Source: a virus. Taken from it: a stretch of DNA of 64,000 nt. The stretch is from positions 1 to 64,000 of the IMG/VR virus record IMGVR_UViG_3300040807_002082; one strand, given 5' to 3'. Positions within the stretch are counted from its first letter, which is position 1. Each line of letters begins with the position of its first letter. The notes below the pieces were generated by a model. That model had not been told where the DNA came from. It worked only from the letters and a program-made list of their open reading frames with translations, and ran no database searches. Positions 36,087 to 51,337 of this stretch are shown here, piece by piece. A program made the translations under genes and the position numbers.

Positions 36087-36322
36087 GCTACGTTGTTGTT
36101 GACGATAATTACATTCTTGAAAAAGAATCAAATCATAAGCTTTATTTCAACGAGACAAAGCACCAGCTTAACAAAATTACACGTAAGTTAAACCTTGGGG
36201 CAGGATTTCAAGGATTTACTCCACTCTTTATGTGCAGCCCTCTCAGATCAACTTTTATAAATAACTGTAAAGAAACACAGTTAGAATCAGGGTTAACATG
36301 CAAACGTTTAAGCAGCACCTAA
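36083..36322 (+). CDS. hypothetical protein
   Basis: SD AAGGAG; LN.G.GF.G.TP.F. Confidence 0.65.
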
Positions 36323-37404
36323 ATGAAGCCACTGGCGGCTATATACATTTTCCTAAATCAGATGATGAGGTTGATGCTCTCGACTTTATACCTGACGAAA
36401 AGAAAGATGCCTTAAAAGATCTTCTCAAAACAATTCAAACAAACAAGTCAGGAGTTAAAGATCCTATTGCGTTGGATGCTTCAAATCCAAACAACGTAAA
36501 GGTAATGAGAACACTTGCTCTCGACTTTGATCTTAAAGCTCTATCAACAAATTACGGGTTTAAGGTATCGGCAGGTAACGGATCCCGTGGAGGTGGTGGT
36601 TCTAAATCAAAAGGTTTTGCATTTGAAGATCAAATCATTCAAGACGTTGAAAAGTATATTGCGCAAGGTCCTGATGCTGATTTCCAATTCCCAGACATGA
36701 TGTCAGCAATGCATAATTCCTTTCTAAAGGATGCGCAATCAATTAGTGTACGATCTGACGGCGCAGCAAATACAAAACGTCCATTGCAGGTTACAGACGC
36801 TTCATTACTAATCGGCGGAAGAGATTTAAACGTTGGTCCACGAGTTACTGATGTAACTGTTACGGCTGACGGTGTTCCATATTATCTATCAGCAAAATTT
36901 GGTGGTACGGTTACTTTCTTTAACGTAGGAGTAACGAAGGTATTCCCTGCATCTGAATTTGAAGCAGGCAAATTCAAATCGCGTGAAGCACTTAGTATTT
37001 TAAAGGCATTCGGAATTGACGAGAAAGAGTTTATTAATATCTTTACGTCATACGATCCTAGAGCGGCAAAGCGCGGCGGCAAGAAAACACGCATTGACGT
37101 AACAAAGAAAATCAATAAAAGAATGCTGCAGCAAATGCTGTTAACTGGTGTTGGATACGGTTATTGGATGGTGCACCAAAAAGGCAAGAAGGTTGAGTTT
37201 TACGAAATGACTAAACGTAAAATGATGCAGTCTGCAAAAATACAAAAGGTCACAATCTTATATCCTGAACCAGGCTCTGCAAAGCGTTTGGATATTGAAG
37301 TATTAACTCCTCGTTATGAATTTAAAATAAATATTCGTAATAAGCAAGGTGGATTATATCCATCTCATATTATGGCAGACTATAAATATAGAAGTAATGA
37401 TTAA
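36298..37404 (+). CDS. putative internal head protein with PD-(D/E)xK-like nuclease fold
   Basis: N-terminus [10 protein letters not shown]; G..FE...TDV.......YLSAK; late promoter at 36256. Confidence 0.6.
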   Translation: MQTFKQHLNEATGGYIHFPKSDDEVDALDFIPDEKKDALKDLLKTIQTNKSGVKDPIALDASNPNNVKVMRTLALDFDLKALSTNYGFKVSAGNGSRGGGGSKSKGFAFEDQIIQDVEKYIAQGPDADFQFPDMMSAMHNSFLKDAQSISVRSDGAANTKRPLQVTDASLLIGGRDLNVGPRVTDVTVTADGVPYYLSAKFGGTVTFFNVGVTKVFPASEFEAGKFKSREALSILKAFGIDEKEFINIFTSYDPRAAKRGGKKTRIDVTKKINKRMLQQMLLTGVGYGYWMVHQKGKKVEFYEMTKRKMMQSAKIQKVTILYPEPGSAKRLDIEVLTPRYEFKINIRNKQGGLYPSHIMADYKYRSND

Positions 37405-37690
37405 TTTTCGCAAATATCTTTCTGAAGGCATTAAGCTCAAATTGATTCGTGGTAAGGATCAAGATGTTTTAAAGATGTGGGATACGAAAGAAAAGAGTTG
37501 GGTAGAACTAAGAGGAAAACCAGATTTTGAGCGAAGATACGATCCAAAAGATCCATTACACAAAGCAATTGCTGCTATTGGCAAGTCGGCTAACATTTCT
37601 GATTTTGTTAATGGAGACGAGGTCAGCATTAATCCGAACCATCCAGATGGTAAAAAGGCATTACAGACAATTAAAAAGTTGATGAAATGA
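37397..37690 (+). CDS. putative internal head protein
   Basis: MINFRKYLSE N-terminus; TATAAATA at 37381. Confidence 0.7.
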   Translation: MINFRKYLSEGIKLKLIRGKDQDVLKMWDTKEKSWVELRGKPDFERRYDPKDPLHKAIAAIGKSANISDFVNGDEVSINPNHPDGKKALQTIKKLMK

Positions 37691-38916
37691 AACGATTTAA
37701 GCAATACATAGCCGAAGAAAAGAATCTTCATATGACTCACGCCGAGGACGCAATCATCGACGGCGGGGTAACTGGTACACGTAATGTAATTAACCATTTA
37801 CGTGATCTACGCGATATGCTAAAGGGTAATTCAAAATCCTCAGTAAACGTTAGTGTTAAATGGGACGGTGCTCCTGCGGTATTCTGTGGTATAGACCCAA
37901 GCGATGGTGAATTCTTTGTAGCCAAGAAAGGCATCTTTAATAAAAATCCCAAGGTATATAAAACATATGCCGATATTGATGCCGACACTAAAGGGGATTT
38001 AAATGCAAAATTGAAAGTTGCCTTGGACGAGTTTAGCAAACTTGGAATCCAAGGTGTAGTTCAGGGTGATTTTTTATATGAAAGAAGTGATATTAAAGAG
38101 GATACAATTGACGGGGAACCGCATATTACTTTCCATCCTAATACGATTGTTTACGCGGTACCTAAAAACTCAGACCTCGGTAAGGAAATACTCGGATCCA
38201 AGGTCGGAGTGGTCTGGCATACAGTATACCGAGGACCAAGCTTTGAAGAAATGTCTGCAAGTTTTGGAGAGGAGATATTACCTAATCTCAAAAAAGTAAG
38301 CTCGGTATGGCAAGTAGATGCTGTCTTTAAAGATCAGTCAGGTACAGCAACAATGACTGCTAAAGAAACCGCAAAGCTTCAAGGTATTTTATCAAAGGCA
38401 GGTAAATTATTTCGTTCTATTCCAGCACAAGTATTAAACGATATGGGCAAGAACGAAGATCTTAATATGAGAATCAATACTTATATTAATAAAAAGGTTC
38501 GTGCTGGAGAACGTGTTGGTAAGCCAACGGTATTTGTTAATGGATTGGAAAAATATCTTAACGATTATTTTGCTGCTGAAATTGCCGCAAAGAAATCAGC
38601 AAAAGGTAAAGCCAATTGGACAAAGAAACAAGACGAAGCAATGGAATTCTTTAAAAGAAATAAGAAGGCTGATATTGCTCGAGCATTTGAAATGTATAAC
38701 CTCATCGTTGACGCAAAGCATATGATTGTTCGTCAACTCGAAAAGGTCGGTGGCCTAAAAACATTATTGAAAACGGCAGACGGTTATGAAGTAACCGGGC
38801 AAGAAGGATTCGTTGCTATTGACCGTTATGGAAAGAATGCTCTTAAATTGGTAGATCGTTTACAGTTTTCTGCTGCAAACTTTTCAGATACATATATCAA
38901 AGGATGGCAACGATAA
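37687..38916 (+). CDS. DUF6267-like protein, ligase/covalent nucleotidyltransferase-like
   Basis: MKRFKQYIAE; KWDG (motif I), QGDF, EGFV, K.VDR. Confidence 0.7.
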   Translation: MKRFKQYIAEEKNLHMTHAEDAIIDGGVTGTRNVINHLRDLRDMLKGNSKSSVNVSVKWDGAPAVFCGIDPSDGEFFVAKKGIFNKNPKVYKTYADIDADTKGDLNAKLKVALDEFSKLGIQGVVQGDFLYERSDIKEDTIDGEPHITFHPNTIVYAVPKNSDLGKEILGSKVGVVWHTVYRGPSFEEMSASFGEEILPNLKKVSSVWQVDAVFKDQSGTATMTAKETAKLQGILSKAGKLFRSIPAQVLNDMGKNEDLNMRINTYINKKVRAGERVGKPTVFVNGLEKYLNDYFAAEIAAKKSAKGKANWTKKQDEAMEFFKRNKKADIARAFEMYNLIVDAKHMIVRQLEKVGGLKTLLKTADGYEVTGQEGFVAIDRYGKNALKLVDRLQFSAANFSDTYIKGWQR

Positions 38917-39194
38917 TGGCTTGGGTAGTAGTACCGGGATCAAACGGTGTATGGGAATACGATAACGCGCCTACACTGGAAACATTAGCTCCTGGCGCAA
39001 AAGTACATCCTGACGACCAATATTACCGCGAGGCTAACGGCACGGTAACTGCTGGAATTAGATCATTTACTCCTTCGGGCGGTAATACACAAGAAACATA
39101 CGTCAAATGTCGTAAAGTTGGAAATGACTATCCAACTAGAACAGTTGGCCCTTGGGGCGAACTAAATAAAAACTATTACGACGAGAGGATTTAA
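38904..39194 (+). CDS. hypothetical protein
   Basis: 96 aa ORF. Confidence 0.7.
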   Translation: MATIMAWVVVPGSNGVWEYDNAPTLETLAPGAKVHPDDQYYREANGTVTAGIRSFTPSGGNTQETYVKCRKVGNDYPTRTVGPWGELNKNYYDERI

Positions 39195-39197
39195 TAA

Positions 39198-40505
39198 ATG
39201 GCACAGTTTAATACCAGCACAGGCGAACTACTAAACAACAATAAAACACTTTACGAAGTTGTTATGACATCTGGGCAGGCAGGCCCTTCCACATATGTTC
39301 CTGCTGGTAATCTAAACTCTGGTTCGGACGCATTTGGTAGAACCAGAATTTCGCAACCACTAACACTGTTTGATAGTTCACATAGATATGCTGATAACGA
39401 TTTGTGGGCAGAGGGTACTACTGGAACTGCAAGTAGCACATTTAACTCAAATGCTGGTTTGGTTGAACTTGATGTTGGCAGTGCAAGTGGTGATGAGATC
39501 ATTCGTGAAACAACAAAGGTTTTCGCATATCAACCAGGCAAATCATTGTTGATTATGAATACATTTGCTTTTGATGCACCCAAAACAAACCTAAGACAAC
39601 GTGTGGGGTATTTTGGCACAGATAATGGTATTTACTTAGAACAAGATGGAACTGATGTTAATATTGTTGAAAGAAGTCTTGTCACTGGTTCTGTAACCGA
39701 AACTAGAATTGCACAATCTAATTGGAATGTTGATACAATGGATGGAACTGGACGTTCCAACTTAACACTAGACTTAACTAAAGCACAAATCCTTTGGATG
39801 GATTTGGAATGGTTAGGACTTGGTAGTGTAAGAGTAGGATTCGTTATCAATGGACAATTTGTTTGTTGTCATATCTTCCATCACGCAAATTTGGTTGACT
39901 CAACGTATATCACAACTGCATCTCTTCCTCTAAGACAAGAGATTACGAATACTGGATTAACCTCTGGTGCGAGTCAAGCGAAACAAGTTTGTGCTACTGT
40001 TATATCTGAGGGTGGTTATGAACTAAGAGGTAGACAACACGCAGTTGGAACTCCAATTACAGCCGCATATGAAATGGCATCTGCTGGAACATATTATCCT
40101 ATAGTCTCATTGAGATTGAAGTCTGCTAGACTAGATGCTATTGTTATTCTTACAGCAGTATCAATGTTGGGAGTTGGTAATGGAGTGAACTTCTCTTGGA
40201 GAATTGTTGCTGGTGGAAATGTTACTACTGCATCTTGGACTAGTGCTGGAACAAATTCATCTGTTGAATATACAACATCTGGAACAGCACATGATGGTGG
40301 TGGTAGAGTTCTTGCACAAGGTTACTTGAACTCATCTAATCAAGGTTCGCCATCAATGGATATTCTCAAAGAAGCGTTGTTCAAATTTCAGTTAGAAAGA
40401 GACACATTCACATCAACAGCAGAACCTATAACATTCTTGGTTGCTCCAGGCACTGCCGATGAAGATGTATTTGCATCAATGGATTGGGAAGAGATTACTC
40501 GCTGA
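39198..40505 (+). CDS. probable virion structural beta-rich protein
   Basis: DAFGR.R.S.P.TLFDS, YQPGKS, EWLG.GSVR.G; Ser/Thr/Gly rich. Confidence 0.75.
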   Translation: MAQFNTSTGELLNNNKTLYEVVMTSGQAGPSTYVPAGNLNSGSDAFGRTRISQPLTLFDSSHRYADNDLWAEGTTGTASSTFNSNAGLVELDVGSASGDEIIRETTKVFAYQPGKSLLIMNTFAFDAPKTNLRQRVGYFGTDNGIYLEQDGTDVNIVERSLVTGSVTETRIAQSNWNVDTMDGTGRSNLTLDLTKAQILWMDLEWLGLGSVRVGFVINGQFVCCHIFHHANLVDSTYITTASLPLRQEITNTGLTSGASQAKQVCATVISEGGYELRGRQHAVGTPITAAYEMASAGTYYPIVSLRLKSARLDAIVILTAVSMLGVGNGVNFSWRIVAGGNVTTASWTSAGTNSSVEYTTSGTAHDGGGRVLAQGYLNSSNQGSPSMDILKEALFKFQLERDTFTSTAEPITFLVAPGTADEDVFASMDWEEITR

Positions 40506-40659
40506 CATAATGTCACTGTTGCATTATAAGCAATCCGGCTATATCAAATTGGTAAGGCTTATTTACCTATTTTCCTAATAAATATGATTGTAAAAGGGTT
40601 AATCTTTAGAATAGACTAAAGACCGGATCACATACATACATATACATTAGGAGAGTAAA

Positions 40660-40914
40660 ATGACACAAGTAATTCTTGCAGCAACTGATGCGTTGCACAT
40701 TCCAGCGGTACTAGACTTCTTCCGCGATTTAAAAAGAAGTTATAAAAAAAGACAAGATCGAAAAGAAACAATCAAACAATTATCAGCACTTTCAAATAGA
40801 GAACTCAATGATATGGGTATTTCTAGAGGTGATATTTGGGCAATTGCAAATGGTGATCCTTCATATAATCGCAGAAAAGTTTCAGAAAATGATAACTTGA
40901 AGGGTTGGGTGTAA
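40660..40914 (+). CDS. DUF1127 (YjiS-like) small protein
   Basis: R..T...L..LS.REL.D.GI.R.DI signature. Confidence 0.88.
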   Translation: MTQVILAATDALHIPAVLDFFRDLKRSYKKRQDRKETIKQLSALSNRELNDMGISRGDIWAIANGDPSYNRRKVSENDNLKGWV

Positions 40915-41090
40915 TGGATACGGTAATGAAATACACATTCGCGCCATTGTCCGGTTTCTGGGATCGCTTTATGAAAGTTACAGAAATCATGGGTTATAGT
41001 AGAGCAGCAGCTCATCTTGCTTCAATGGGTTTACACGAAGAAGCAAAAAACTGTATGATGCAAATCAAAGAACTCAAAAATAACCATTGA
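40914..41090 (+). CDS. small protein coupled to DUF1127 gene
   Basis: TAATG coupling; G..RAA..L...G..EEAK. Confidence 0.7.
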   Translation: MDTVMKYTFAPLSGFWDRFMKVTEIMGYSRAAAHLASMGLHEEAKNCMMQIKELKNNH

Positions 41091-41163
41091 CATTTTGGTT
41101 ATAACCTGATATAAATAATAGGGTAGGAGTAATTCTGCCCTTTATTTATGAACAGGTGAGGTT

Positions 41164-41775
41164 ATGCATATACACAACTTATTCCCAACTCCAATTGGAG
41201 AATTTTCTTACGGGGAAGATATGGCCCCGTTTTCAGAAATTGTAAAATCTGAAGGTTATCAAAAACATATTAAAAACGGTAGCGGTAATAGATATTCTGA
41301 CCACAACGTATTATCGTATGATTCATTTGGCCCATTAAGGGAATGGATTGATAAATGCCTTCAAGAATATTATCAACACACCTTTGTCCCTCTCGAACAG
41401 CAACACCCACAAGAACTGTACATTACAGAGTCTTGGGTTAATTATGCAAATAACTCTGAATCGCACGAGTGGCACAATCATACTAACTCTATAATATCAG
41501 GTGTGTTTTATATTGAAGCAACTGATGATGCAATTGAGTTCAAATCACCAAAGCCTTATAATCAAATCATGCCCGAGCCAGATTACTTTAACGAGTATAA
41601 CTCGTCTCAATGGTGGCTGCCTGCAAGAACAGCAACTTTATATTTGTTCCCATCTTGGCTACATCACGGCGTTCCTGTATTTGAAAACCGAGAAGAAGAT
41701 AGGATCAGTATTGCATTTAATACATTCTTAAAGGGCATCGTCAGTCGAAGATTGTCTTCAAGATTAGAGATATAA
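41164..41775 (+). CDS. 2OG-Fe(II) oxygenase, TIGR02466-like
   Basis: LFPTP, H.H.NS.ISGVFY, LFPSWL.H.V, RISIAFN. Confidence 0.88.
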   Translation: MHIHNLFPTPIGEFSYGEDMAPFSEIVKSEGYQKHIKNGSGNRYSDHNVLSYDSFGPLREWIDKCLQEYYQHTFVPLEQQHPQELYITESWVNYANNSESHEWHNHTNSIISGVFYIEATDDAIEFKSPKPYNQIMPEPDYFNEYNSSQWWLPARTATLYLFPSWLHHGVPVFENREEDRISIAFNTFLKGIVSRRLSSRLEI

Positions 41776-41796
41776 ATAGTTTTAAAGGAGTATATA

Positions 41797-42372
41797 ATGG
41801 ATTTATCATGGTTACCTGATGATGGTGGAACTGGGCATATGCCACCTTCCGATGAAGTTATCAGTTTTTGGCAAACAGTCAAACAAAAGACAGGCTTTAA
41901 AAAATTAGTAGAAATTGGATTTAATGCTGGTCATAGCAGTTCTATTCTATTAACCTTGTTTGATGATATCACAATTCAATCGTTTGACATTGGACAGTTT
42001 GACATCACGCACTCGAACGGAAAGCTGGTAAAAGAAAGATTTGGCGACCGCTTTAATCTTACAATCAAACCATCAGAACAAATTACATACGGAGAAGTAA
42101 ATGGATCTGACATTCTGTTTATTGATGGCGGACACGATTATCCTATCGTATCTGGAGACGTAGACTTGTGGGAAAACTCAAACATCCCTTACGTCATCAT
42201 TGACGACCTCCAAATCAACGGAGTTAAAAGAGCGCATCGTGAGCTTGTTTCGCGGAATAAGGTAGAAGCAATTTATAAACATTATTATACCGCGGTGCTT
42301 CCATCTTGGATGAGAGACAATCCAAACAACCGTCCAGTTAATGTACCAATTGAGGTTTTGATGAGAAAATGA
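41797..42372 (+). CDS. class I SAM methyltransferase (Methyltransf_24-like)
   Basis: EIGFNAGHS, FIDGGH, IIDD. Confidence 0.85.
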   Translation: MDLSWLPDDGGTGHMPPSDEVISFWQTVKQKTGFKKLVEIGFNAGHSSSILLTLFDDITIQSFDIGQFDITHSNGKLVKERFGDRFNLTIKPSEQITYGEVNGSDILFIDGGHDYPIVSGDVDLWENSNIPYVIIDDLQINGVKRAHRELVSRNKVEAIYKHYYTAVLPSWMRDNPNNRPVNVPIEVLMRK

Positions 42373-43064
42373 AAACGCTAATATATCAGTACTATTATTC
42401 CTTACCACAGAATAAACGTACGCATCATATTATGGATGACAGTAACAATTACCACGAACTATCTGCGCACAGCATTAGGCGTTACGCGTTAGAACATGGA
42501 CACGATTATAAATTCTTAGATCAAGAACATCCCGTGTCACCTTTTTATGGTATTTTCTTACCATTTACCGAAGGTTGGTGTCACGATTATGACGCGATTT
42601 GTTGGATGGACGCTGATATATTAGCAACAACTCACGCAAAAGATGTGTTTTCAAAATACAACGCAGGTAAGATATCGGCATACTTCATGGAAACACAAAA
42701 TCGTTGGAAAGGTAAACCTGACGATAGTCCTTGGGGATGGTTTAAAGATAAAGGCCATATTAATTCTGGCGTTGTTATATTTCCAAAATCAACGTATCAT
42801 TATATAACTAACTTTGTATCAGACTTACAGCATTTGCATGATACGAGAACAGAACTTGAAACATCGCTTGGGAATTTTGACCAGGCAATTGTAAATAAGA
42901 TCGTTCGTAACTTAGATTCATATCAAGAATTAAAGCGTGAATGGAATTATCATTTAGGACGGTATCCACAAGAGGATAGATTTGACGCAAACCTTATTCA
43001 CTATTGGCGTCAATTCAAAGGACAGATGAGAAAAGACTTTGAGGATGAAAGAATTTTAAAATGA
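42369..43064 (+). CDS. GT-A glycosyltransferase
   Basis: WMDAD, INSGV, DQ...N, EWN, IHY. Confidence 0.8.
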   Translation: MKTLIYQYYYSLPQNKRTHHIMDDSNNYHELSAHSIRRYALEHGHDYKFLDQEHPVSPFYGIFLPFTEGWCHDYDAICWMDADILATTHAKDVFSKYNAGKISAYFMETQNRWKGKPDDSPWGWFKDKGHINSGVVIFPKSTYHYITNFVSDLQHLHDTRTELETSLGNFDQAIVNKIVRNLDSYQELKREWNYHLGRYPQEDRFDANLIHYWRQFKGQMRKDFEDERILK

Positions 43065-43678
43065 AAAAAGTGATATGTATGGGATCAGGCAAGAATATGG
43101 TCCTTATAAACGATTGGGATACAGATGGGATTAAAATTTGCGGGGTTAACAACACTTGGCGTGGCACTGATAAATGGGATGTGCTATTACATGCTGGCGA
43201 CTATCCCCATAAACGAGAAGTTCAAGCCGCTAGAAAAAGACAAGAACAGTTAATTGTTTCTCGAGAAGGTGTAATGGGATTTAAGCAATCCTATATGGGA
43301 ATGTCAAATATGCCTTGGGAACAGGCAAGAATCTTTTTAGGTTTGCCTATTTACTTTACTATGACGTATTGGGCTCTATGGCATTTAAAACCTGACGCAA
43401 TTGGTTTCATTGGTTTTGACATGAATTATACCGCAGGTCCTAATGGTGAAACCGCATTTTATGGCGAAGGCTATGATATGAAAACGCGTGGAGTACCTGA
43501 TCCTTTATATCAATTCCGAACCGTTCCTGAATATAAAAAGGAAGGTGAGAATATGATTAACATTCTTTTTGATAGATTAAAAGAACGCACCACCGCTCGC
43601 TTAGTCAATCTTTCAGACGATCCTACCAGTATTCTACCTTGGGATCAAGTAACCTTTGAGGAATTTAAATCATGGTAA
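43061..43678 (+). CDS. putative glycosyltransferase-like protein
   Basis: I.MGSG, GVNN.W, GFIGFD..Y, FYG; within glycan cluster. Confidence 0.55.
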   Translation: MKKVICMGSGKNMVLINDWDTDGIKICGVNNTWRGTDKWDVLLHAGDYPHKREVQAARKRQEQLIVSREGVMGFKQSYMGMSNMPWEQARIFLGLPIYFTMTYWALWHLKPDAIGFIGFDMNYTAGPNGETAFYGEGYDMKTRGVPDPLYQFRTVPEYKKEGENMINILFDRLKERTTARLVNLSDDPTSILPWDQVTFEEFKSW

Positions 43679-44343
43679 TTTGTGAAAAGCATAACTTCTT
43701 ATATTTGCGTATTCCTAAAAACGCAAGCTCAAGTTTAGCAGCATTCTTTATTAAAAACTTTTGTGCAATGTCTGATCGTTGGACGGAAGTAAATGATGCC
43801 GCAATCCGAGATCATAAAGTTGACGTTAATGTAATTAACAAATATAGACACCAATACCGTTGGATTCATTTAACGTTGCAAGAACTTGTTGATAATAAGA
43901 TCGTTACCACATATGATGCTCATAATAAAGATGTAATATCTGTTTTGCGCAATCCTTATATGCGTCAGCTATCTTTATACTTTTTTCTAAAACGCGGTAT
44001 GAGCAAATCAGCTGATGAGTTTCGGCATATCTTTAGAGAAGGCAAACATGAGTCTGATGTGTCAAACGCAATCCTTCAAACAGAATATTCTTTATTAAAT
44101 GGTGTTGACTGTGGTACTTGGTGGTTGTATAATAAATTAGATACACACGTTAAAAACTTTTGTAACGTAAAAGGCGTTAATAGTTCTTTAGAATTGCCAA
44201 AGTATAAAGGCACATGGACTCCTAAAGACCAAGACTTGTTTGATGAATATTACGATCAGAAAACAATTGATGCTGTTCAGAAGTATTATGAAAAGGATTT
44301 TGAGAAATTATTTGAATTAGAAACAGGACTACAGGTGGCATGA
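43672..44343 (+). CDS. sulfotransferase family 2
   Basis: RIPKNASSS (5'-PSB), LRNPY.R..S.Y (3'-PB), YYEKDF. Confidence 0.85.
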   Translation: MVICEKHNFLYLRIPKNASSSLAAFFIKNFCAMSDRWTEVNDAAIRDHKVDVNVINKYRHQYRWIHLTLQELVDNKIVTTYDAHNKDVISVLRNPYMRQLSLYFFLKRGMSKSADEFRHIFREGKHESDVSNAILQTEYSLLNGVDCGTWWLYNKLDTHVKNFCNVKGVNSSLELPKYKGTWTPKDQDLFDEYYDQKTIDAVQKYYEKDFEKLFELETGLQVA

Positions 44344-45014
44344 AAGTTTACATCTTATATCATAACGACCCTTTATCAAAACAATATGCGGACTTTGCGG
44401 CAAAATCGTGCCAGCAAACAAATATGAATTATGAATTGGTTGAAGGTTTTTCTGAACCAATGAATCCTAATGATGCTTGGAACAGTATTGGATTAAAGCG
44501 AAAAATTGAAAGAAACAACTTTGTTCCTAAAGCACAATTATGTTCAGCAGGTCACGCAAAAATTTGGAAAATGATTTCAGAAAGTGATGAGGAAGGCATT
44601 GTATTTGAACACGATGCCGTTATGTTACACGATATTAATGAGATTGAATTTCCAGATAATATGATTGTGGTCCTAGGCTATAAAGTAAAAGATGCCAACA
44701 AATATTTACATGACCAGGCAGGTCCTCCTCAATATATTCGAGATTTGAAAGGACACGAAGGTGCACACGCATATGGGATGACGCCAGCAACTGCAAGAAA
44801 ACTACTCGATGAGATTGAAGAAATTGGAGTATGGTCTGCAGTTGATAACCAATTCTTTTTAGCAGATCAACGTAAAAGCAAGGTTCCTTTAGGCATTCTT
44901 GATCCAACACCAGCAATCGGTTGGTTGCGCCAATCAACAATTTGGGGTAACTCATCAGAAAAGAATTACGAATTTATAGATTCATTTAAAAATAACTATT
45001 ATGGAGACCAATAA
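44340..45014 (+). CDS. GT25-like glycosyltransferase
   Basis: C..GH...WK, FEHDA, GAHAY..TP..A.KL. Confidence 0.8.
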   Translation: MKVYILYHNDPLSKQYADFAAKSCQQTNMNYELVEGFSEPMNPNDAWNSIGLKRKIERNNFVPKAQLCSAGHAKIWKMISESDEEGIVFEHDAVMLHDINEIEFPDNMIVVLGYKVKDANKYLHDQAGPPQYIRDLKGHEGAHAYGMTPATARKLLDEIEEIGVWSAVDNQFFLADQRKSKVPLGILDPTPAIGWLRQSTIWGNSSEKNYEFIDSFKNNYYGDQ

Positions 45015-45016
45015 CA

Positions 45017-45769
45017 ATGTGGCAGCTAACCGACTCGACTCCACGCGAATTTAGATATTATCAGTTTGGGCTACAAAGAACAGGCACGACAATTATTGAC
45101 CGAATCATTAGGGATAATTGGAACTATTGGAAAGCAAATGATGCAGAACAAAATTTGCCAAAGCCTTTTACTTTGCAGCCTCAACCAGATACCGTTTGGA
45201 AACACGCGATTGATATTCCACCAAACTATGACCAAAACGCGCCGACAATTTTAGTATATAAAAGCCCATATACTTGGGCTGAAAGTATGGCATTCCGTAG
45301 AGGTTTGGGCAATGGCGCCTGGAACCAAAGTTGGGGTCACGAGCATTTGAATCTTTATCCTCAACCAAAGCCAGGTTGGAATAACGTCACAATGCCAGGT
45401 CAAGGTACAGTTAACATTGGTCAGATTATGTACGTTTATAAACACTGGTTTAATACTTGGCTTCCATTTGTTGAAGAACATCCTGACAATACAGTCTTGA
45501 TTAAATATGAAGATTTGCTTGTTGATGAGAAACGCAATGAGATCTTTAAGGATATTACTACCAAATTTGGTTGGGATATTATTGAAAATCCAACAATGCC
45601 AAAACACGTAGGTTCATCTCAGCCTATGGATCAAGAACGTATTGACTACTACCTAAAAGGCAGACCAACGCAAGAAATGTTCTATCAACACGGTAGAAGG
45701 TACTTAAATTCTATTAATGACATCCTTGGGCACGAATTAATTACACGCCTGGGATACGAATTCTTATAA
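45017..45769 (+). CDS. sulfotransferase-like protein
   Basis: GLQRTGT, WKH, K.PY.W..S, KYEDL, LGY. Confidence 0.8.
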   Translation: MWQLTDSTPREFRYYQFGLQRTGTTIIDRIIRDNWNYWKANDAEQNLPKPFTLQPQPDTVWKHAIDIPPNYDQNAPTILVYKSPYTWAESMAFRRGLGNGAWNQSWGHEHLNLYPQPKPGWNNVTMPGQGTVNIGQIMYVYKHWFNTWLPFVEEHPDNTVLIKYEDLLVDEKRNEIFKDITTKFGWDIIENPTMPKHVGSSQPMDQERIDYYLKGRPTQEMFYQHGRRYLNSINDILGHELITRLGYEFL

Positions 45770-45809
45770 ATAGAATTAAATGTTTCCAAGTTAAAAGCAC
45801 AGGATTTTC

Positions 45810-48248
45810 TTGATGTCAGAAGATGAGAAAAAAGAAAAAGAAAAGCGTAAAAGCTTCAAAGAATTTGATCCAACTAAGTATGTGGATGTTGAGCCTACAT
45901 TAGATGAGGCCGCAAAAGGAACTGCGGTTATTAGTTTTGGCCGAATGAATCCTGTTACTTCAGGACACGAAAGGCTTGTCAATAAAGTATTGGCGGTGGC
46001 TGCTCAAGCAAAAGGTACTCCACTCATTTATCTTTCTCATTCTGAAGATACAAGAAAGAATCCTTTATCATATAACGATAAAATCAAATTTGCCAAACAA
46101 GCGTTTGGTAGCGTTATTCAAAAATCCAAATCAAGAACAATTATTGAAGTAGCAAAAGAGCTATCTGGAAAATACGCAAACCTTATCGTTGTTGTAGGTT
46201 CAGACAGAGTTGCTGAATTTAATTCGCTTTTAAGTAAGTATAATGGTAAAGAATATAACTTTCAAGTAATTGATATACAGACCGCAGGTGCGCGCGATCC
46301 TGATTCTGAAGGCGTAGAAGGTATATCAGCATCTAAAATGCGTTCTTATGCCGCGGATAATGATCTTAATCAATTTAAAAAAGGTTTGCCAAAACGGCTG
46401 CAAAGAAATGCAGATGAAGTTATGAATGCAGTTAGACAAGGCATGAACATAAACGAGACACTAGAGATGGATGACTCAGAATTAAATGAAGTATTAGATA
46501 GACAACAACGTCGTGCAAAAGCAATTGCTATGCGTCGTGTTAAGCATAAGTTAAAACGCGGCCGTGAAAAAATGAAACGCAAAAAGGCAACAACCGAGAT
46601 CCTTAAGAAGCGTGCTACAAAGAAAGCCATAGCAACATTTAAAGATAAGTTTTCAAAGAATAAGCGTTATGCTGATATGGACGTTGCGCAAAAGATTCAA
46701 ATTGACAAAAAGATTGAGAAATTAGGCAAGGCTCGTATTGAACGCATCGCAAAGAAATTACTTCCAAAAGTTAAAGCGGCTGAAAGAGATAAGTTTAAGA
46801 AAAAGGCCATCGACAATCCTTTAACGCAAAAACAAGAATCTTATGAGATTAACGAAAAGATTAAGGTTGCGCAGGATAGAGATATTGATGATATGCCAGG
46901 TTCTCAGCCTGCAGGATATTACAAAGGTGTAGATAAAGATAAGAAAGATGATCGCGCCCGTCACTTTGCTCGTAAAGCAAAAATGGATGACGATAATCCT
47001 AAAGCATATACACCAGCACCCGGCGATAAAGAAGCAAAGACAAAACCATCAACATTTACGAAAAAATACAAAGCAATGTATGGAGAAATGAACGAATGGG
47101 TTTGCGGTCAATGCAATTGCGATCCTTGTACATGTGATAGCGATTTACTTGAGATGTGGGGATCATACGTAACAAAACGTCCTCATATGCTAATGGATCG
47201 GAATAATAAAGTCAAATACGATAAAAGATTCAAGATGTATAAGCCTGCGCATAAACCTGAAGACGATGCTGCAATTGAGGATGATACAATTGAAGAATCC
47301 GTATTCAGCGAGATTTCAAACCTAGAAGAGTTATTAGATTTAGTAGAATCTACTGAAGAAATGTTTGGCAATCTTGAAGAGAAACAGATTGAAGGTCTAA
47401 AGAATAAAGCTGACAAATCAGGAATGCCATATGGTATTTTGAAAAAGGTTTACGACCGAGGAATGGCAGCTTGGAGAACAGGACATCGACCAGGAACAAC
47501 TCCACAACAATGGGGTATGGCTCGAGTTAACTCATTCGTAACAAAGTCAAAAGGCACGTGGGGTAAAGCAGATTCTGACCTTGCGGCAAAAATTCGTAAA
47601 GAAGGAATAGAAGAAATGAATGAAGCAGCAACACCTCAGATGAAAAAGGCGGCCTCTGAAATTGAAGCATATGCAAAGAAAAGCGGTGGCATTGATAAAG
47701 CAGACTTTATGAAAGCAGCAAAGATGCTATCAACTGGCAAAGCAGGTTCAAGCTTTATTAAATTTGTAATGGATCTTGATACAGAACCACGTGAATGGTT
47801 AATCGTTACTCTTGCTAAACATATGGGCAAGGAAACTGTTGAAAAAATGTTCAGAATTAAAATTCGCGAAGAAGTTGAGCTTGATGAAACTTTATCACCA
47901 TCTGAAAAGAAACTTGTCAATCAAATGTATGATAAGAAAGGTAACCTTACTGCGATTGGTAAAAAGGTTATGAACCACGGTAAAAAGCCTGGTGATAAAG
48001 GTTATGTTGAATCAATTGACGAAATGTTTCCTGCGGTTGCAGCAATCGCTGGCCGTGCAGTTGCAGGCGCTGCGGCAAGAGCGATTGCCAAAAAGAAAAA
48101 AGATGAAGCTTCTGAATACGAGAAAACACGCCGTAAGACAATTAAATCTGTTGAGAGCTTTAAGCAATTCAGAGAAGAAGGCGGTGCTGGCGAAGAAGGT
48201 ACTGACGAGCTTGTAAAGAATTTCAAAAAGGACACGCCAAATGCCTAA
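45810..48248 (+). CDS. HIGH-superfamily (cytidyltransferase-like) nucleotidyltransferase fused to many small modules
   Basis: FGRMNP.TSGH, KNPL, VGSDRV, SASKMR; later VYDRG.AAW..GHRPG....W..ARVNSF module. Confidence 0.85.
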   Translation: MMSEDEKKEKEKRKSFKEFDPTKYVDVEPTLDEAAKGTAVISFGRMNPVTSGHERLVNKVLAVAAQAKGTPLIYLSHSEDTRKNPLSYNDKIKFAKQAFGSVIQKSKSRTIIEVAKELSGKYANLIVVVGSDRVAEFNSLLSKYNGKEYNFQVIDIQTAGARDPDSEGVEGISASKMRSYAADNDLNQFKKGLPKRLQRNADEVMNAVRQGMNINETLEMDDSELNEVLDRQQRRAKAIAMRRVKHKLKRGREKMKRKKATTEILKKRATKKAIATFKDKFSKNKRYADMDVAQKIQIDKKIEKLGKARIERIAKKLLPKVKAAERDKFKKKAIDNPLTQKQESYEINEKIKVAQDRDIDDMPGSQPAGYYKGVDKDKKDDRARHFARKAKMDDDNPKAYTPAPGDKEAKTKPSTFTKKYKAMYGEMNEWVCGQCNCDPCTCDSDLLEMWGSYVTKRPHMLMDRNNKVKYDKRFKMYKPAHKPEDDAAIEDDTIEESVFSEISNLEELLDLVESTEEMFGNLEEKQIEGLKNKADKSGMPYGILKKVYDRGMAAWRTGHRPGTTPQQWGMARVNSFVTKSKGTWGKADSDLAAKIRKEGIEEMNEAATPQMKKAASEIEAYAKKSGGIDKADFMKAAKMLSTGKAGSSFIKFVMDLDTEPREWLIVTLAKHMGKETVEKMFRIKIREEVELDETLSPSEKKLVNQMYDKKGNLTAIGKKVMNHGKKPGDKGYVESIDEMFPAVAAIAGRAVAGAAARAIAKKKKDEASEYEKTRRKTIKSVESFKQFREEGGAGEEGTDELVKNFKKDTPNA

Positions 48249-48342
48249 GAAGCCTTTAAAGGAAGCAATTAAAGAAGCTACCGAAAAAGGTAAGTATGCG
48301 CCTCCTAGGCCAAAGAAAGTAACTGGCAGGAAAAAGAAATGA
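48241..48342 (+). CDS. 33-aa basic peptide
   Basis: Hand translation MPKKPLKEAIKEATEKGKYAPPRPKKVTGRKKK; overlaps both neighbours. Confidence 0.55.
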   Translation: MPKKPLKEAIKEATEKGKYAPPRPKKVTGRKKK

Positions 48343-48662
48343 AACGTTTTAAACAATACCTAGATGAAGATTGTTGGTCAGGATATAAACAGGTCGGCAT
48401 GAAAAAGAAAGGTGACAAGATGGTACCTAACTGTGTACCTGAAGAAGCGGAGATTGAAGAAGGTTCTGAAACTTGGGAGCAAGGTTATAAACGCCGTGTT
48501 GTAAAAACAACTAAACCTGAACATAAAGAAAAAGGTTATAATTGGCGTATTAAAGGTAAAGATCGTCCTGAAATTTCAATTAAACTTTATAAAGAAAAGC
48601 CATCTCAACAAGAGTTTAACAAACAAATGAAAAGAGTAGCGGGGCACGAGTTCGGTGGATAA
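48339..48662 (+). CDS. putative internal head protein
   Basis: MKRFKQYLDE; CW.GYKQVGMK.K....VPNCVP module. Confidence 0.8.
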   Translation: MKRFKQYLDEDCWSGYKQVGMKKKGDKMVPNCVPEEAEIEEGSETWEQGYKRRVVKTTKPEHKEKGYNWRIKGKDRPEISIKLYKEKPSQQEFNKQMKRVAGHEFGG

Positions 48663-49011
48663 GTTTAGTAAATATACAGAAGATCGTATTGATGCCATTT
48701 GTGAAGAATGCAGCATCTACGATGATTTGATTATTGAGGCGGCCGAATACGAAGGCAAGAAAGTAGAATTGAATAATCCTATTCGTACCTCTGAGGTTCC
48801 TTCAAAGAAATTTAAAGTATACGTCAAAAATGAAAAGGGTAATGTTGTTGTTGTCCGTTTTGGCGATCCGAAAATGGAAATTAAAAGAGATGATCCTGCG
48901 CGTAGAAAAAGCTTTAGAGCAAGACATAATTGTGCAGATCCAGGTCCTAAGTGGAAAGCAAGATACTGGAGTTGCTATCAATGGCGTGCAGGCGCCAATG
49001 TAGATAATTAA
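48655..49011 (+). CDS. putative internal head protein
   Basis: KKFKVYV, FGD..M, RKSFRARH.C, ARYWSC. Confidence 0.8.
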   Translation: MDKFSKYTEDRIDAICEECSIYDDLIIEAAEYEGKKVELNNPIRTSEVPSKKFKVYVKNEKGNVVVVRFGDPKMEIKRDDPARRKSFRARHNCADPGPKWKARYWSCYQWRAGANVDN

Positions 49012-49055
49012 ATAAATATAGTCGGATATTGATTAAACCTTAAAGGAAACAAACA

Positions 49056-49217
49056 ATGAAACGCTTTAAAGCACACCTCGAGGAAAAAGAGCCTGATACT
49101 CTTGCTATGTTAGCCGCCAAAGAAAAAGGCAAAAAAGACGCTGAGAAAAAGGACGACGAGGAAGAAAAAGAATCTCAACCTAAAAAAGATAAAGAGGAAA
49201 AACCAAATGAAGATTAA
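49056..49217 (+). CDS. 53-aa charged protein with capsid-targeting-like N-terminus
   Basis: Hand translation MKRFKAHLEEKEPDTLAMLAAKEKGKKD...; SD AAAGGA. Confidence 0.7.
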   Translation: MKRFKAHLEEKEPDTLAMLAAKEKGKKDAEKKDDEEEKESQPKKDKEEKPNED

Positions 49218-49815
49218 TGTAGCAAAGGCATTCATCGAAAGACTTGATGAGGCAAAAGTTTTTATTCAAGTAACCGACCCTAAAGATGCTATTGCTGCAT
49301 TGAAAAAGGCTGGGGTCCGTGCCACACCTGATAAGAAAATGGACGACGAAATTGTTGTTGATTCCAAAGATAAGAAAAAGGTTGTCGCATGGATGCTGAA
49401 GAGCGGTTGGGAAAAACAAGATATCGAAGATCTTTATCCTAAGTTGATGGAAGACAACACAAACGATGTTTCCGATGACGGCGACGAAATGGACAAAGTT
49501 CAGCCTAAAGCATTAAAGAAAAAATTCAAAGATCGTAAAGATAAAGATATTGATAACGATGGCAAGGTTGATGACTCAGACGAGTATTTACACAACCGCC
49601 GCAAAGCAGTATCAAAGGCAGTTAAAGAAGAGACTGTAACTGAAGCCACTGATCTTTACGACAAAGGCGGCATCCAAATGACTCGTTTCTCAATGGGAAA
49701 AGGAGCAATGGGTTTGCAGATTAATTATGGTGGTAAGTATATTCAAGTACCAGAAAAAGATATCAAGACTCTTGCAGGCGCTTTATCTAAATTGAAATTC
49801 CGCCAAGGAATGTAA
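49207..49815 (+). CDS. putative prohead core/internal protein
   Basis: DKDIDNDGKVDDSDEYLHNRRKAV EF-hand-like module; LDE/A, LME/D, VTE/A. Confidence 0.75.
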   Translation: MKINVAKAFIERLDEAKVFIQVTDPKDAIAALKKAGVRATPDKKMDDEIVVDSKDKKKVVAWMLKSGWEKQDIEDLYPKLMEDNTNDVSDDGDEMDKVQPKALKKKFKDRKDKDIDNDGKVDDSDEYLHNRRKAVSKAVKEETVTEATDLYDKGGIQMTRFSMGKGAMGLQINYGGKYIQVPEKDIKTLAGALSKLKFRQGM

Positions 49816-49854
49816 TAAATATAACTATAATAAACCCAAACAAGGAGAAAAGCA

Positions 49855-50172
49855 ATGGCACTTTGGGGAAAAACCGACGCAGTAGGATCAGTTCCAAAAT
49901 ATTTGGAAGACGATGCGAATAACACAAACAAGTCACACGACAAAGACAACGCAATCTTTGTAGACTTAACAGAGGCAGGCGTAGCAGCTAACCGTGCAAA
50001 AGGTATTAAAACACCTGGTTGGAACCTGTATAATACTTACACAACAGCTGACGGCCGTACACGTCACATTGTAGAACCATTGGTAACAATGAAAGTATCA
50101 CAGGCTGATGCAGGTGACTTAGGTGTAACAGGTAATACAGCGATTGAAGATACTATCGTGGCTGACAGCTAA
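49855..50172 (+). CDS. putative virion protein
   Basis: MALWGKTD, G..TPGW..Y......G..R...E.LV; late promoter upstream. Confidence 0.75.
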   Translation: MALWGKTDAVGSVPKYLEDDANNTNKSHDKDNAIFVDLTEAGVAANRAKGIKTPGWNLYNTYTTADGRTRHIVEPLVTMKVSQADAGDLGVTGNTAIEDTIVADS

Positions 50173-50189
50173 TACTTGGTTGATATATA

Positions 50190-50564
50190 ATGAAATTAAC
50201 GGAAGCAACCTTTCTGTTATATGCTGCCCAACATTATGATAATCCTCAATGTTCAGACGTAACTGAGTTTGAAGAGGATCTGAAAAGATTTCAGTATTTG
50301 AGAAAATTGTTCGGTCGATATAGACAAGACAAGGATCTTAAAGAAAGGTTGATTCTGAACCACTTGATTATCATATATAATGTATTTGGGCCTGATGCAA
50401 CGAACCTACTTTTTATGAAGTTAGGCGAATACCATGAATACTTAAAACCATTTGTTGAATATTTGAACTTTATGCCATTGGAAATTCGTTATGATGATGT
50501 TGTTTTAAGTAAACATAATATTGTGTCAGACAAGCATATAGTGGAAAAACTTAAAGGAATTTGA
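50190..50564 (+). CDS. conserved T4-like hypothetical protein
   Basis: YDNPQC....F.EDL.RF.Y, RLILNH.I..YNVFG. Confidence 0.85.
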   Translation: MKLTEATFLLYAAQHYDNPQCSDVTEFEEDLKRFQYLRKLFGRYRQDKDLKERLILNHLIIIYNVFGPDATNLLFMKLGEYHEYLKPFVEYLNFMPLEIRYDDVVLSKHNIVSDKHIVEKLKGI

Positions 50565-51337
50565 CGATGGTCGTCGACTTATTTTTAGTATATCAATTTA
50601 TTCGTCGATTGGCAACACCTTTCGAGAACTGGGATGCCTACAAGTTAGGTATTATTGATAAAGACGGCAAAGTCTTAAAACCTCGTAAAACACTCAAAAC
50701 CAAAAAGGAAGAACAGGCGTGGGGTCTTTATGACATTATGCTTGCTAACATCAAAAAGTTGTTAGCCAAGGTTCCTGGTGGTAGTACAAAGTTGGCATCT
50801 TATGCTGCAGCGTTATTTCTAATTAAGGAATATAAACATTTTACAGATGAATCTTTAATTACAGAAGATATGGATGAATCTGATATTGACAATGTTCTAT
50901 TAGAATTTCAAAACCGATATGGTTATTATAACACACTCGCAGAGAATGTCAATGGATTTAGTGAATTAAATGAGGCAAAAGTACGGTGGAAAAAAGCAGG
51001 ATCTAACGGCGAAATCGAAGCAACCATCGGCGGAAAAAAATATCAAATTGAAAAGGCTTTAGATCATAACGAACGTCACAAAGGTGAATGGAAGGTTATG
51101 GTCTGGGATAAGCGTCGAGAAAGTTGGGAATGGGAAACTACCGAATACGGTAAGGCAAATGCTAAAGCATGGATTATGGACAGAATGGAAGAAGATGTTT
51201 CTGTCGGAAGTGGTGCAATTGCAGGTTTAGGTGTAGGTCCTGATGGAGAACCTGGGGTAACTCCTGCTCAAGCCAAAAAATACAAGAAAAAGAATAAGTC
51301 AAAAATGTTAAGCTTTAAGGAGAAAATGAAAAAATGA
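50561..51337 (+). CDS. conserved T4-like hypothetical protein
   Basis: L.TPF..W.AY.LGIID..G, YAAAL.LIKE. Confidence 0.8.
   Translation: MTMVVDLFLVYQFIRRLATPFENWDAYKLGIIDKDGKVLKPRKTLKTKKEEQAWGLYDIMLANIKKLLAKVPGGSTKLASYAAALFLIKEYKHFTDESLITEDMDESDIDNVLLEFQNRYGYYNTLAENVNGFSELNEAKVRWKKAGSNGEIEATIGGKKYQIEKALDHNERHKGEWKVMVWDKRRESWEWETTEYGKANAKAWIMDRMEEDVSVGSGAIAGLGVGPDGEPGVTPAQAKKYKKKNKSKMLSFKEKMKK
50925..50952 (-). promoter_or_regulatory. intragenic antisense sigma70-type promoter
   Basis: TTGACA-16-TATAAT with extended TGn on - strand. Confidence 0.55.

Follow-up and report, generated by a model that had tools for sequence, protein, structure and literature searches.

Our results suggest that an uncultured marine T4-like phage uses a ten-residue N-terminal leader to send late proteins into its head. 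The leader was found in the first 64,000 nucleotides (the window, i.e., the whole stretch of DNA analysed here) of a 77.7-kb contig (IMG/VR record IMGVR_UViG_3300040807_002082), which is about 37% complete. Five open reading frames (ORFs) of a late gene cluster start with M-x-x-F-[KR]-x-[YH]-[LI]-x-E, and a sixth, at 48655, starts with a weak copy (Table 1). We read the decapeptide, M-x-x-F-[KR]-x-[YHF]-[LIV]-x-E, as this lineage's counterpart of the T4 capsid targeting sequence, which would load late proteins as head cargo that is cleaved and ejected. We put the probability of this reading at roughly 0.75. By analogy with T4, the tagged enzymes and small proteins are probably carried in the virion of this phage.

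Late-expressed tagged proteins would attach to the prohead's scaffolding core by the leader's two aromatic residues (positions 4 and 7) and become enclosed in the head. A gp21-type prohead protease would cut after the Glu of [L/I]-x-E, and the freed mature proteins would remain with the DNA and exit with it at infection. The predicted cargo consists of a HinP1I/MspI-like nuclease-fold protein, an RNA-ligase-like DUF6267 enzyme, a TxGH nucleotidyltransferase polyprotein and four small proteins. The polyprotein has a longer, IPI-like leader (SFKEF ... EPTLDE, with the predicted cut before the following A) and would probably be cut further at internal [L/I/M]-x-E junctions. We infer core binding, cleavage after Glu-10, residence with the DNA and ejection from T4.

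A shared leader at the start of late genes

All six ORFs have Phe at position 4 and Tyr or His at position 7. Positions 8–10 read [L/I]-x-E in five of the six, and T-E-D in the ORF at 48655. A strict pattern, M..[FYW][KRSQ].[YHFW][LIVT].[ED], was scanned in six frames over the whole 77.7-kb contig. It matched five times, each time at the start of one of the tagged ORFs, while 0.014 matches would be expected by chance among 126 ORF starts given the contig's own amino-acid composition (Poisson P ~4e-12). On this difference, together with the counts in relatives given below, we rejected a chance origin of the shared starts. There was no excess of internal copies of the motif in the contig's genes (5 non-N-terminal matches against about 2.7 expected). 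The mature parts of the proteins fall into different BLAST clusters or PHROGs; hence, the six tagged proteins are mutually unrelated.

The same residues are those that matter in T4. In the T4 record the internal proteins IPII and IPIII begin MKTYQEFIAE and IPI begins MKTFKEFTSTTTPVSTITE. The pattern derived from the window, applied to 20 kb of T4, finds the starts of ipII and ipIII and nothing else. In the T4 leader, the residues that count most are those at positions 4 and 7 for targeting and those at positions 8 and 10 for processing (PMC9026906). The leader in the window and that of the T4 internal proteins are alike in having ten residues, aromatic residues at 4 and 7, Leu or Ile at 8 and Glu at 10. 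An earlier note on this DNA, made from its letters, had claimed six such N-terminal tags and a likeness to T4 capsid targeting. Both claims stand: all six tags lie where it had placed them, five of them strict and the one at 48655 the weakest, as it had said, and the conserved positions 4, 7, 8 and 10 are the important ones in T4.

One could also argue that the conserved feature is the nucleic acid, either as a translation-initiation region or as a patch of recombination homology for cassette swaps, and that the likeness of the peptides is a by-product. The three MKRFK tags of the window do share 21–25 of 30 nucleotides, and the tagged genes lie in variable regions whose families are swapped from one relative to another. 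However, the other pairs of tags share only 13–20 of 30 nucleotides and yet keep Phe-4, the aromatic residue at 7, Leu or Ile at 8 and Glu-10, with differing codons for identical residues. The pattern also holds in cyanophage S-CREM2 despite a different codon usage (MKDFDSFLEE, MKNFSSFLTE), and in T4. Upstream of the tags the ribosome-binding regions are dissimilar, and cassette exchange would in any case be compatible with protein targeting. The differing codons and the conservative variation of the tag in relatives (F/Y, L/I/V, K/R) indicate conservation at the protein level, and we consider an explanation at the level of DNA or RNA very unlikely.

A portable tag in related phages

To place the tag in its family we scanned, in six frames, 80 related viral contigs (1.06 Mb) that had been fetched via the DUF6267 protein. 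They contain 123 strict matches, all of them on the gene strand. An upstream stop lies within 30 codons of 115 of these tags, and 122 are followed by at least 40 codons. Stripped of their tags, the proteins form at least 25 families without mutual match at E 1e-5. Variants of the tag include MLSFKNYLAE, MKSFKSFIGE and MKKFRNFVTE, among others. The scan of genome and relatives that the earlier note had suggested finds a non-random motif placed almost always on ORF starts. The late-promoter-like box TATAAATA is also commoner before tagged ORFs, lying up to 100 nt upstream of 34 of 104 of them (33%) and of 149 of 1329 others (11%; P = 3e-8, a generous value, as the loci are related and the sequences akin).

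The nearest isolate is phage C48C1 (Kyanoviridae), with about 52% identity at the DUF6267 protein. A complete relative of 194.6 kb (G001; 71% identity at DUF6267) has eight tagged long ORFs, clustered at 23–25 kb, 37–41 kb and 180 kb. One of them, a 353-amino-acid ORF at 37744 (MKSFKSYIKE), has the P-loop GGPGSGKS and echoes the kinases of cyanophage virion proteomes. In phage Syn9, gp184, annotated as a cytidyltransferase, starts MKKFSAFLSE.

Within single protein families the tag comes and goes. A full-library search for the 368-amino-acid nuclease-like protein gave 454 cluster representatives, and 61 diverse ones were aligned. Most of these 61 start MAYxFIPKS exactly where the tag of the window protein stops; two are tagged by the strict pattern, and about nine have a tag or variant by eye. 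Among close relatives of the DUF6267 protein, 24 of 28 match a relaxed tag pattern. Judged from these alignments, the tag is an N-terminal add-on to pre-existing proteins.

In phage S-CAM1 the nuclease-like gene, the DUF6267 gene and a nucleotidyltransferase ORF are directly consecutive, and all three are untagged. From this row of genes the trio looks like a conserved unit whose tagging differs between lineages. The third ORF lies in an unannotated gap after the DUF6267 gene (NC_020837.1, 6030–6831), which holds an open frame with a nucleotidyltransferase signature (YFTFGRFQPPTTGH...).

Tagged proteins in virions of relatives

Two published virion proteomes allow the rule to be compared with proteins found in particles. 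For S-CREM2, 52 virion proteins were reported, including an unexpected S-adenosylmethionine (SAM) hydrolase, a kinase and a cytidylyltransferase (PMC10665884). We scanned the whole S-CREM2 genome in six frames with the relaxed pattern. Five annotated genes start with a tag: gp6 (MKDFDSFLEE), gp13 (MKDLHSFLTE), gp14 ((GTG)KRFDAFLTE), gp154 (MKNFSSFLTE) and gp175 (MNWLKNYLIE). Four of the five are in the virion proteome, namely gp6, the SAM hydrolase; gp13; gp14, the kinase; and gp154, the cytidylyltransferase (hypergeometric P = 0.012). The DUF6267 homologue of S-CREM2, gp87, is untagged and off the virion list, which fits the rule but is weak evidence. In S-SCSM1, the virion NMNAT-like protein ORF91 (PMC9602691) begins MKSFLQFLKE, and it is the sole tagged ORF start in the 50 kb scanned. 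Neither proteome paper mentions a leader (PMC10665884, PMC9602691). In the S-CREM2 virion protein gp12 (OR473000, 7704–10313), whose annotation is CRISPR-associated endonuclease, a tag-like sequence (PLRFASFMAE) stands away from the start, at residues 16–25.

The protease that the proposed mechanism needs is present in relatives. The complete relative encodes a Peptidase_S77 (gp21-type) protease (125.6 bits), and a gp21-type head protease is annotated in S-CREM2.

It could be that the leader forms an amphipathic helix that does something else in the cell, for example associating with the membrane or the nucleoid, marking proteins for degradation or offering chaperones a handle, and that abundant late proteins were detected in virions as contamination. 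AlphaFold2 (AF2) places a short helix at tag residues 4–10 or 4–11, detached from the fold, in the models of the nuclease-like and the DUF6267 protein, and the contamination caveat was raised by the proteome authors themselves (PMC10665884, PMC9602691). This account sits badly with the selectivity of detection: of the five tagged S-CREM2 genes four were detected, as was the one tagged gene of S-SCSM1, whereas the untagged S-CREM2 neighbours gp7–gp11 were not. It would also leave the position-by-position match to an experimentally dissected T4 sequence to coincidence, as well as the co-occurrence of tag and gp21-type protease in the complete relative genome. We regard it as quite unlikely.

Three predicted enzyme folds in the tagged cluster

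The earlier note had predicted a nuclease, a ligase-like protein and a nucleotidyltransferase in the cluster. All three predictions find support, the first from Foldseek (HinP1I/MspI), the second from VIA-align and an invariant KxDG, and the third from its TxGH motif and PHROG matches.

The 368-amino-acid protein was modelled by AF2 with a mean predicted local distance difference test (pLDDT) of 93.6. Foldseek matched the model to HinP1I (E 6e-4, probability 0.99) and MspI (E 2.3e-3, probability 0.92), followed by RecU and Hjc resolvases. TM-scores to these matches are low (0.29–0.45), and identity to HinP1I and MspI is 8–10%. In the 61-sequence alignment E110, R161, D185, S198 and K200 are invariant. 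HinP1I and MspI, both monomeric type II restriction endonucleases, are the closest folds, and the layout of the invariant acidic residues and of Ser-x-Lys appears to be that of PD-(D/E)xK variants. Unlike these enzymes, the 368-amino-acid protein is encoded in a phage late cluster beside a ligase-like gene; S-CAM1 has the two genes side by side as well.

The 409-amino-acid protein matches Pfam DUF6267 at E 4e-109, and the Pfam model begins at residue 13, just past the tag. AF2 gave a pLDDT of 83, with residues 1–15 of low confidence or disordered apart from the short detached helix. K58-W59-D60-G61 (motif I, KxDG) is invariant in 28 sequences, and Glu-10 of the tag is invariant in the DUF6267 alignment. 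Q126-G-D128, E373-G-x-V376 and K387-L-x-x-R391 are likewise invariant and in the correct order, and their assignment to motifs III, IV and V goes by order alone. With Z below about 8 counting as a grey zone, VIA-align found NgrRnl of Naegleria (Z 8.5), T4 Rnl2 (Z 7.4 and 7.3), T4 Rnl1 (Z 7.0) and fungal Trl1 (Z 6.9); the top ten (Z 8.5–6.3) are nine RNA ligases or the ligase domain of a tRNA ligase, and one DNA ligase. Foldseek gave weak ligase matches among noise (LigIV, E 0.045), and a search of the sequence against solved structures gave no match. The protein shares with ATP-dependent RNA ligases the nucleotidyltransferase fold (Z 8.5–6.9 over 175–195 residues) and KxDG, but it is only 9–13% identical to them and has a large helical insert (residues 225–353). 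A DUF6267 part and a cytidyltransferase part are both covered by phrog_455, a sign that the two also occur fused.

The 812-amino-acid protein strongly matches phrog_3041 and phrog_395, "cytidyltransferase" (E 8e-100), and also DUF5824. T-x-G-H and a downstream S-x-x-K-x-R are invariant in its family. Profile scores for Pfam CTP_transf_like (20.6 bits) and TIGR00125 (20.2 bits) are below cut-off. A profile of the nucleotidyltransferase domain had weak matches to solved structures (MJ0951, E 0.004; PPAT, E 0.5), while the protein sequence itself had none, and NCBIfam returned nothing useful.

The earlier expectation that this phage tags enzymes rather than small inhibitors is overdrawn. There are three enzyme folds, but four of the six tagged ORFs are small (53–118 amino acids), and T4 too packages an enzyme, Alt. 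A role of the trio in cutting and rejoining nucleic acid, or in nucleotide-cofactor metabolism, would fit the folds; a counter-defence role is purely speculative.

A probable modular polyprotein and the question of cleavage

The 812-amino-acid protein lacks the strict tag. It has instead an extended leader (45813–45908) with Lys-rich residues, SFKEF (residues 15–19) and EPTLDE before the catalytic domain. The form ...[GS]FKEFD...EPT[LI]xE-A is conserved in homologues, with EPT[LI]xE-A eight residues before the domain. SFKQFREE lies near residue 784, close to the C-terminus, and so the tag-like sequences that had been reported at both ends of this protein are indeed there. A 56-amino-acid ORF at 75570–75740, on the same contig but outside the window, begins MAKSFKKFRESKWDDDWGDDDDY; its SFKKFRE resembles SFKQFREE, and from this likeness the ORF may carry a second leader variant.

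Homologues occur in three forms. In the first, a canonical tag stands directly before the catalytic FGR motif (C48C1, L062, L068, L069, S-CREM2). The second starts at the catalytic domain without a leader, and the third has the extended leader of the window protein.

Downstream of the catalytic domain the modules can be compared with stand-alone proteins. When L001_13254, a tagged stand-alone protein of C48C1, is aligned with the 812-amino-acid protein, its first mature residue falls on residue 228, right after SELNE. For other stand-alone tagged proteins the first residue after the tag maps to polyprotein positions preceded by LKE, LDE or IEE. Complete internal tags stand at junctions in relatives (MRSFSQFIKE-DWVCGQC, RFRDFVKE-SEDEG), and SFKQFREE of the window is of this kind. 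That module boundaries fall at [L/I]-x-E would agree with a cargo polyprotein whose cuts lie at [L/I/M]-x-E. In the 812-amino-acid protein the predicted cuts come after residues 33, 227, 349, about 460, about 513, 605 and 693.

The small tagged proteins encoded downstream belong in the same picture. The 107-amino-acid module is 86% identical to a tagged ORF of the complete relative and is found inside polyproteins of relatives, where it is preceded by ...LKE, ...KSE or ...LDE. The homologue of the 48655 protein in the complete relative is part of a 183-amino-acid ORF with the canonical tag MKAFKQYMHE. The 53-amino-acid peptide has no homologue among the tagged ORFs of related loci. It fits these comparisons that the genes at 48339, 48655 and 49056 would be free-standing members of the module pool of the 812-amino-acid protein. 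The untagged 202-amino-acid protein that follows is a possible member of the same pool, judged by its matches (Table 1). Its DIDNDGKVDDSDEY segment, which resembles a calcium-binding loop, recurs at the start of Syn9 gp185 and inside several "cytidyltransferase" PHROGs.

These boundaries bear on the possibility that the leader directs proteins to the prohead, or to some other shared partner (the scaffold, for instance), without being cleaved and without ejection of the proteins. The proteins would then do their work while the head is assembled, for example by helping to process or mature the DNA, or they would be minor parts of the structure. What is documented for tagged relatives is their presence in virions. 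In T4, Asp at position 10 stops processing but not targeting (PMC9026906), so that targeting without processing can occur, and the 48655 copy and the SFKEFDP leader have no L-x-E at positions 8–10. Without a cut, however, there is no obvious reason for Glu-10 to be near-invariant, and position 8 to be Leu, Ile or Val, across more than 100 tags. Nor would one expect stand-alone and fused modules to share a boundary at [L/I]-x-E, or the extended leader to keep EPT[LI]xE-A just ahead of the catalytic domain. We think it improbable that the leader stays uncleaved.

Several observations weigh against cleaved and ejected head cargo. The 48655 copy, which starts with GTG and reads Thr-8, Glu-9, Asp-10, is off the cleavage consensus, and one form of the nucleotidyltransferase has no leader at all. 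The tagged S-CREM2 protein gp175 (55 amino acids) was not detected in the virion. The authors of both proteomes note that abundant late proteins may have co-purified with virions (PMC10665884, PMC9602691). In Syn9 and S-CAM1 both the DUF6267 protein and the nuclease-like protein are untagged, as is the DUF6267 protein of S-PM2; hence, head delivery would be an option of this lineage and is not required for enzyme function. A restriction-like nuclease packed beside phage DNA would need DNA protection or an inactive state. Finally, our own contig, at about 37% completeness, has no Peptidase_S77 match and no head protease or capsid genes.

Gene neighbourhood and late-promoter-like boxes

Late genes surround the tagged cluster: besides an endolysin and a spanin they encode a virion structural protein (phrog_1645) and a head protein (phrog_613). 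UvsX- and gp41-like genes lie upstream of the tagged-gene region. At the DNA level the phrog_1645 gene shares about 67–69% identity with genes, among them annotated virion proteins, of T4-like cyanophages and Puniceispirillum phage HMO-2011. The order of the genes at 49855–51337 is syntenic in the complete relative. The DUF7207 gene is matched at the syntenic place in S-CREM2 and S-SCSM1, and the preceding gene of S-SCSM1 begins like the one at 49855.

The window has 14 matches to TATAAATA where 6.2 are expected. Late promoters had been proposed at four sites. Three of them carry the exact box, while the one near 49010 holds just a near-match, AATAAATA (Table 1). For the 97-amino-acid ORF the first listed start is GTG 37349; ATG 37397 is supported by five homologues of exactly 97 amino acids, all of which begin with the tag. 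This ATG overlaps the stop codon of the upstream gene (ATGATTAA), which suggests translational coupling. From this arrangement the 97-amino-acid gene is likelier to be translated by coupling, and the box at 37381, if active, may serve the DUF6267 gene or genes further downstream.

Table 1. Tagged genes, neighbouring genes and late-promoter-like boxes, with positions in the window.
Position	Strand	Feature	Evidence or remark
36256..36263	+	T4-type late-promoter-like box TATAAATA	exact; 42 nt upstream of first tagged gene
36298..37404	+	368-amino-acid protein, tag at 36298-36327, HinP1I/MspI-type PD-(D/E)xK-like fold	phrog_8438, AF2, Foldseek
37381..37388	+	TATAAATA box	exact; inside end of nuclease-like gene, 9 nt before ATG 37397
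37397..37690	+	97-amino-acid protein, tag MINFRKYLSE	strict tag match
37687..38916	+	409-amino-acid DUF6267 protein, tag MKRFKQYIAE, RNA-ligase-like covalent nucleotidyltransferase fold	Pfam, AF2, VIA-align
39198..40505	+	untagged virion structural protein	phrog_1645 "virion structural protein", E 5e-150; late/virion context
45765..45772	+	TATAAATA box	exact; 48 nt upstream of ATG 45813
45813..48248	+	811/812-amino-acid TxGH nucleotidyltransferase ("cytidyltransferase"), then string of small modules	PHROG, DUF5824, TxGH
48339..48662	+	107-amino-acid Cys-containing module protein, tag MKRFKQYLDE	strict tag match
48655..49011	+	118-amino-acid protein, weak tag (GTG)DKFSKYTED	phrog_7595
49011..49018	+	near-match late box AATAAATA	one mismatch to TATAAATA; 38 nt upstream of 49056
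49056..49217	+	53-amino-acid Lys/Glu/Asp-rich peptide, tag MKRFKAHLEE	strict tag match
49207..49815	+	untagged 202-amino-acid protein, DIDNDG-type module	PHROG matches to internal parts of phrog_22379, phrog_4359, phrog_764
49855..51337	+	untagged conserved late genes: head protein (phrog_613), DUF7207, 258-amino-acid protein	context, not shown to be cargo

Comparison with known cargo systems

Apart from the leader itself, the cluster resembles the T4 internal proteins in that one leader is shared by unrelated proteins at variable loci in a late setting. The T4 IPI leader (MKTFKEF...ITE) is resembled by the SFKEF ... LDE that precedes an A in the 812-amino-acid protein. There are also differences. 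The phage belongs to a different family (a Kyanoviridae-like marine phage), and its predicted cargo consists of three enzyme folds and multi-module polyproteins instead of small basic proteins. There are about eight tagged genes per genome, as counted in the complete relative.

A parallel for enzyme cargo is the T4 ADP-ribosyltransferase Alt, which is loaded into the head, cut by gp21 at both ends and delivered with the DNA (PMC9026906). The 812-amino-acid protein is also tag-like near both ends. Unlike Alt, no ADP-ribosyltransferase is found here; the folds are those of a nuclease, a ligase and a TxGH nucleotidyltransferase. Salmonella phage SPN3US and other giant phages also have ejection proteins: many proteins inside the head are loaded with propeptides, undergo maturation by the prohead protease and enter the cell. 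These phages are unrelated, and their leader and cleavage consensus differ; the tag described here is of the T4 type.

In a literature search that did not cover subscription journals, no paper joined "capsid targeting" with cyanophages, save one review on T4 with a passing mention of them. Neither internal proteins nor the prohead protease come up in a review on the genes of T4-like cyanophages.

Implications

Cyanophage virion proteomes contain an unexpected SAM hydrolase, kinases and NMNAT-like or cytidylyltransferase proteins, and their authors were undecided between cargo and contamination (PMC10665884, PMC9602691). A T4-type leader on exactly those virion enzymes offers a mechanism for their presence.

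We can also suggest a wider view, which we hold only tentatively and consider rather doubtful as it stands. Marine T4-like phages (Kyanoviridae and relatives) may carry a set of premade, injected proteins that can be read from the genome. The head would take up any protein that has the ten-residue leader or stands behind [L/I]-x-E in a cargo polyprotein, and the protein would be delivered together with the DNA. The trio of nuclease, ligase and nucleotidyltransferase would then act in the first moments of infection, before phage gene expression, by cutting and rejoining or modifying host or phage nucleic acid, or by restoring a nucleotide cofactor against host defences.

The leader provides a simple rule, at the level of sequence, to predict head cargo from the genomes and metagenomes of some of the ocean's most abundant phages, and the rule makes it testable which phage enzymes act before phage transcription. 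It also suggests that the head-loading system of T4 is older and more widely used than the T-even phages. For phages of cyanobacteria and marine heterotrophs, the leader would be a natural protein-delivery tag.

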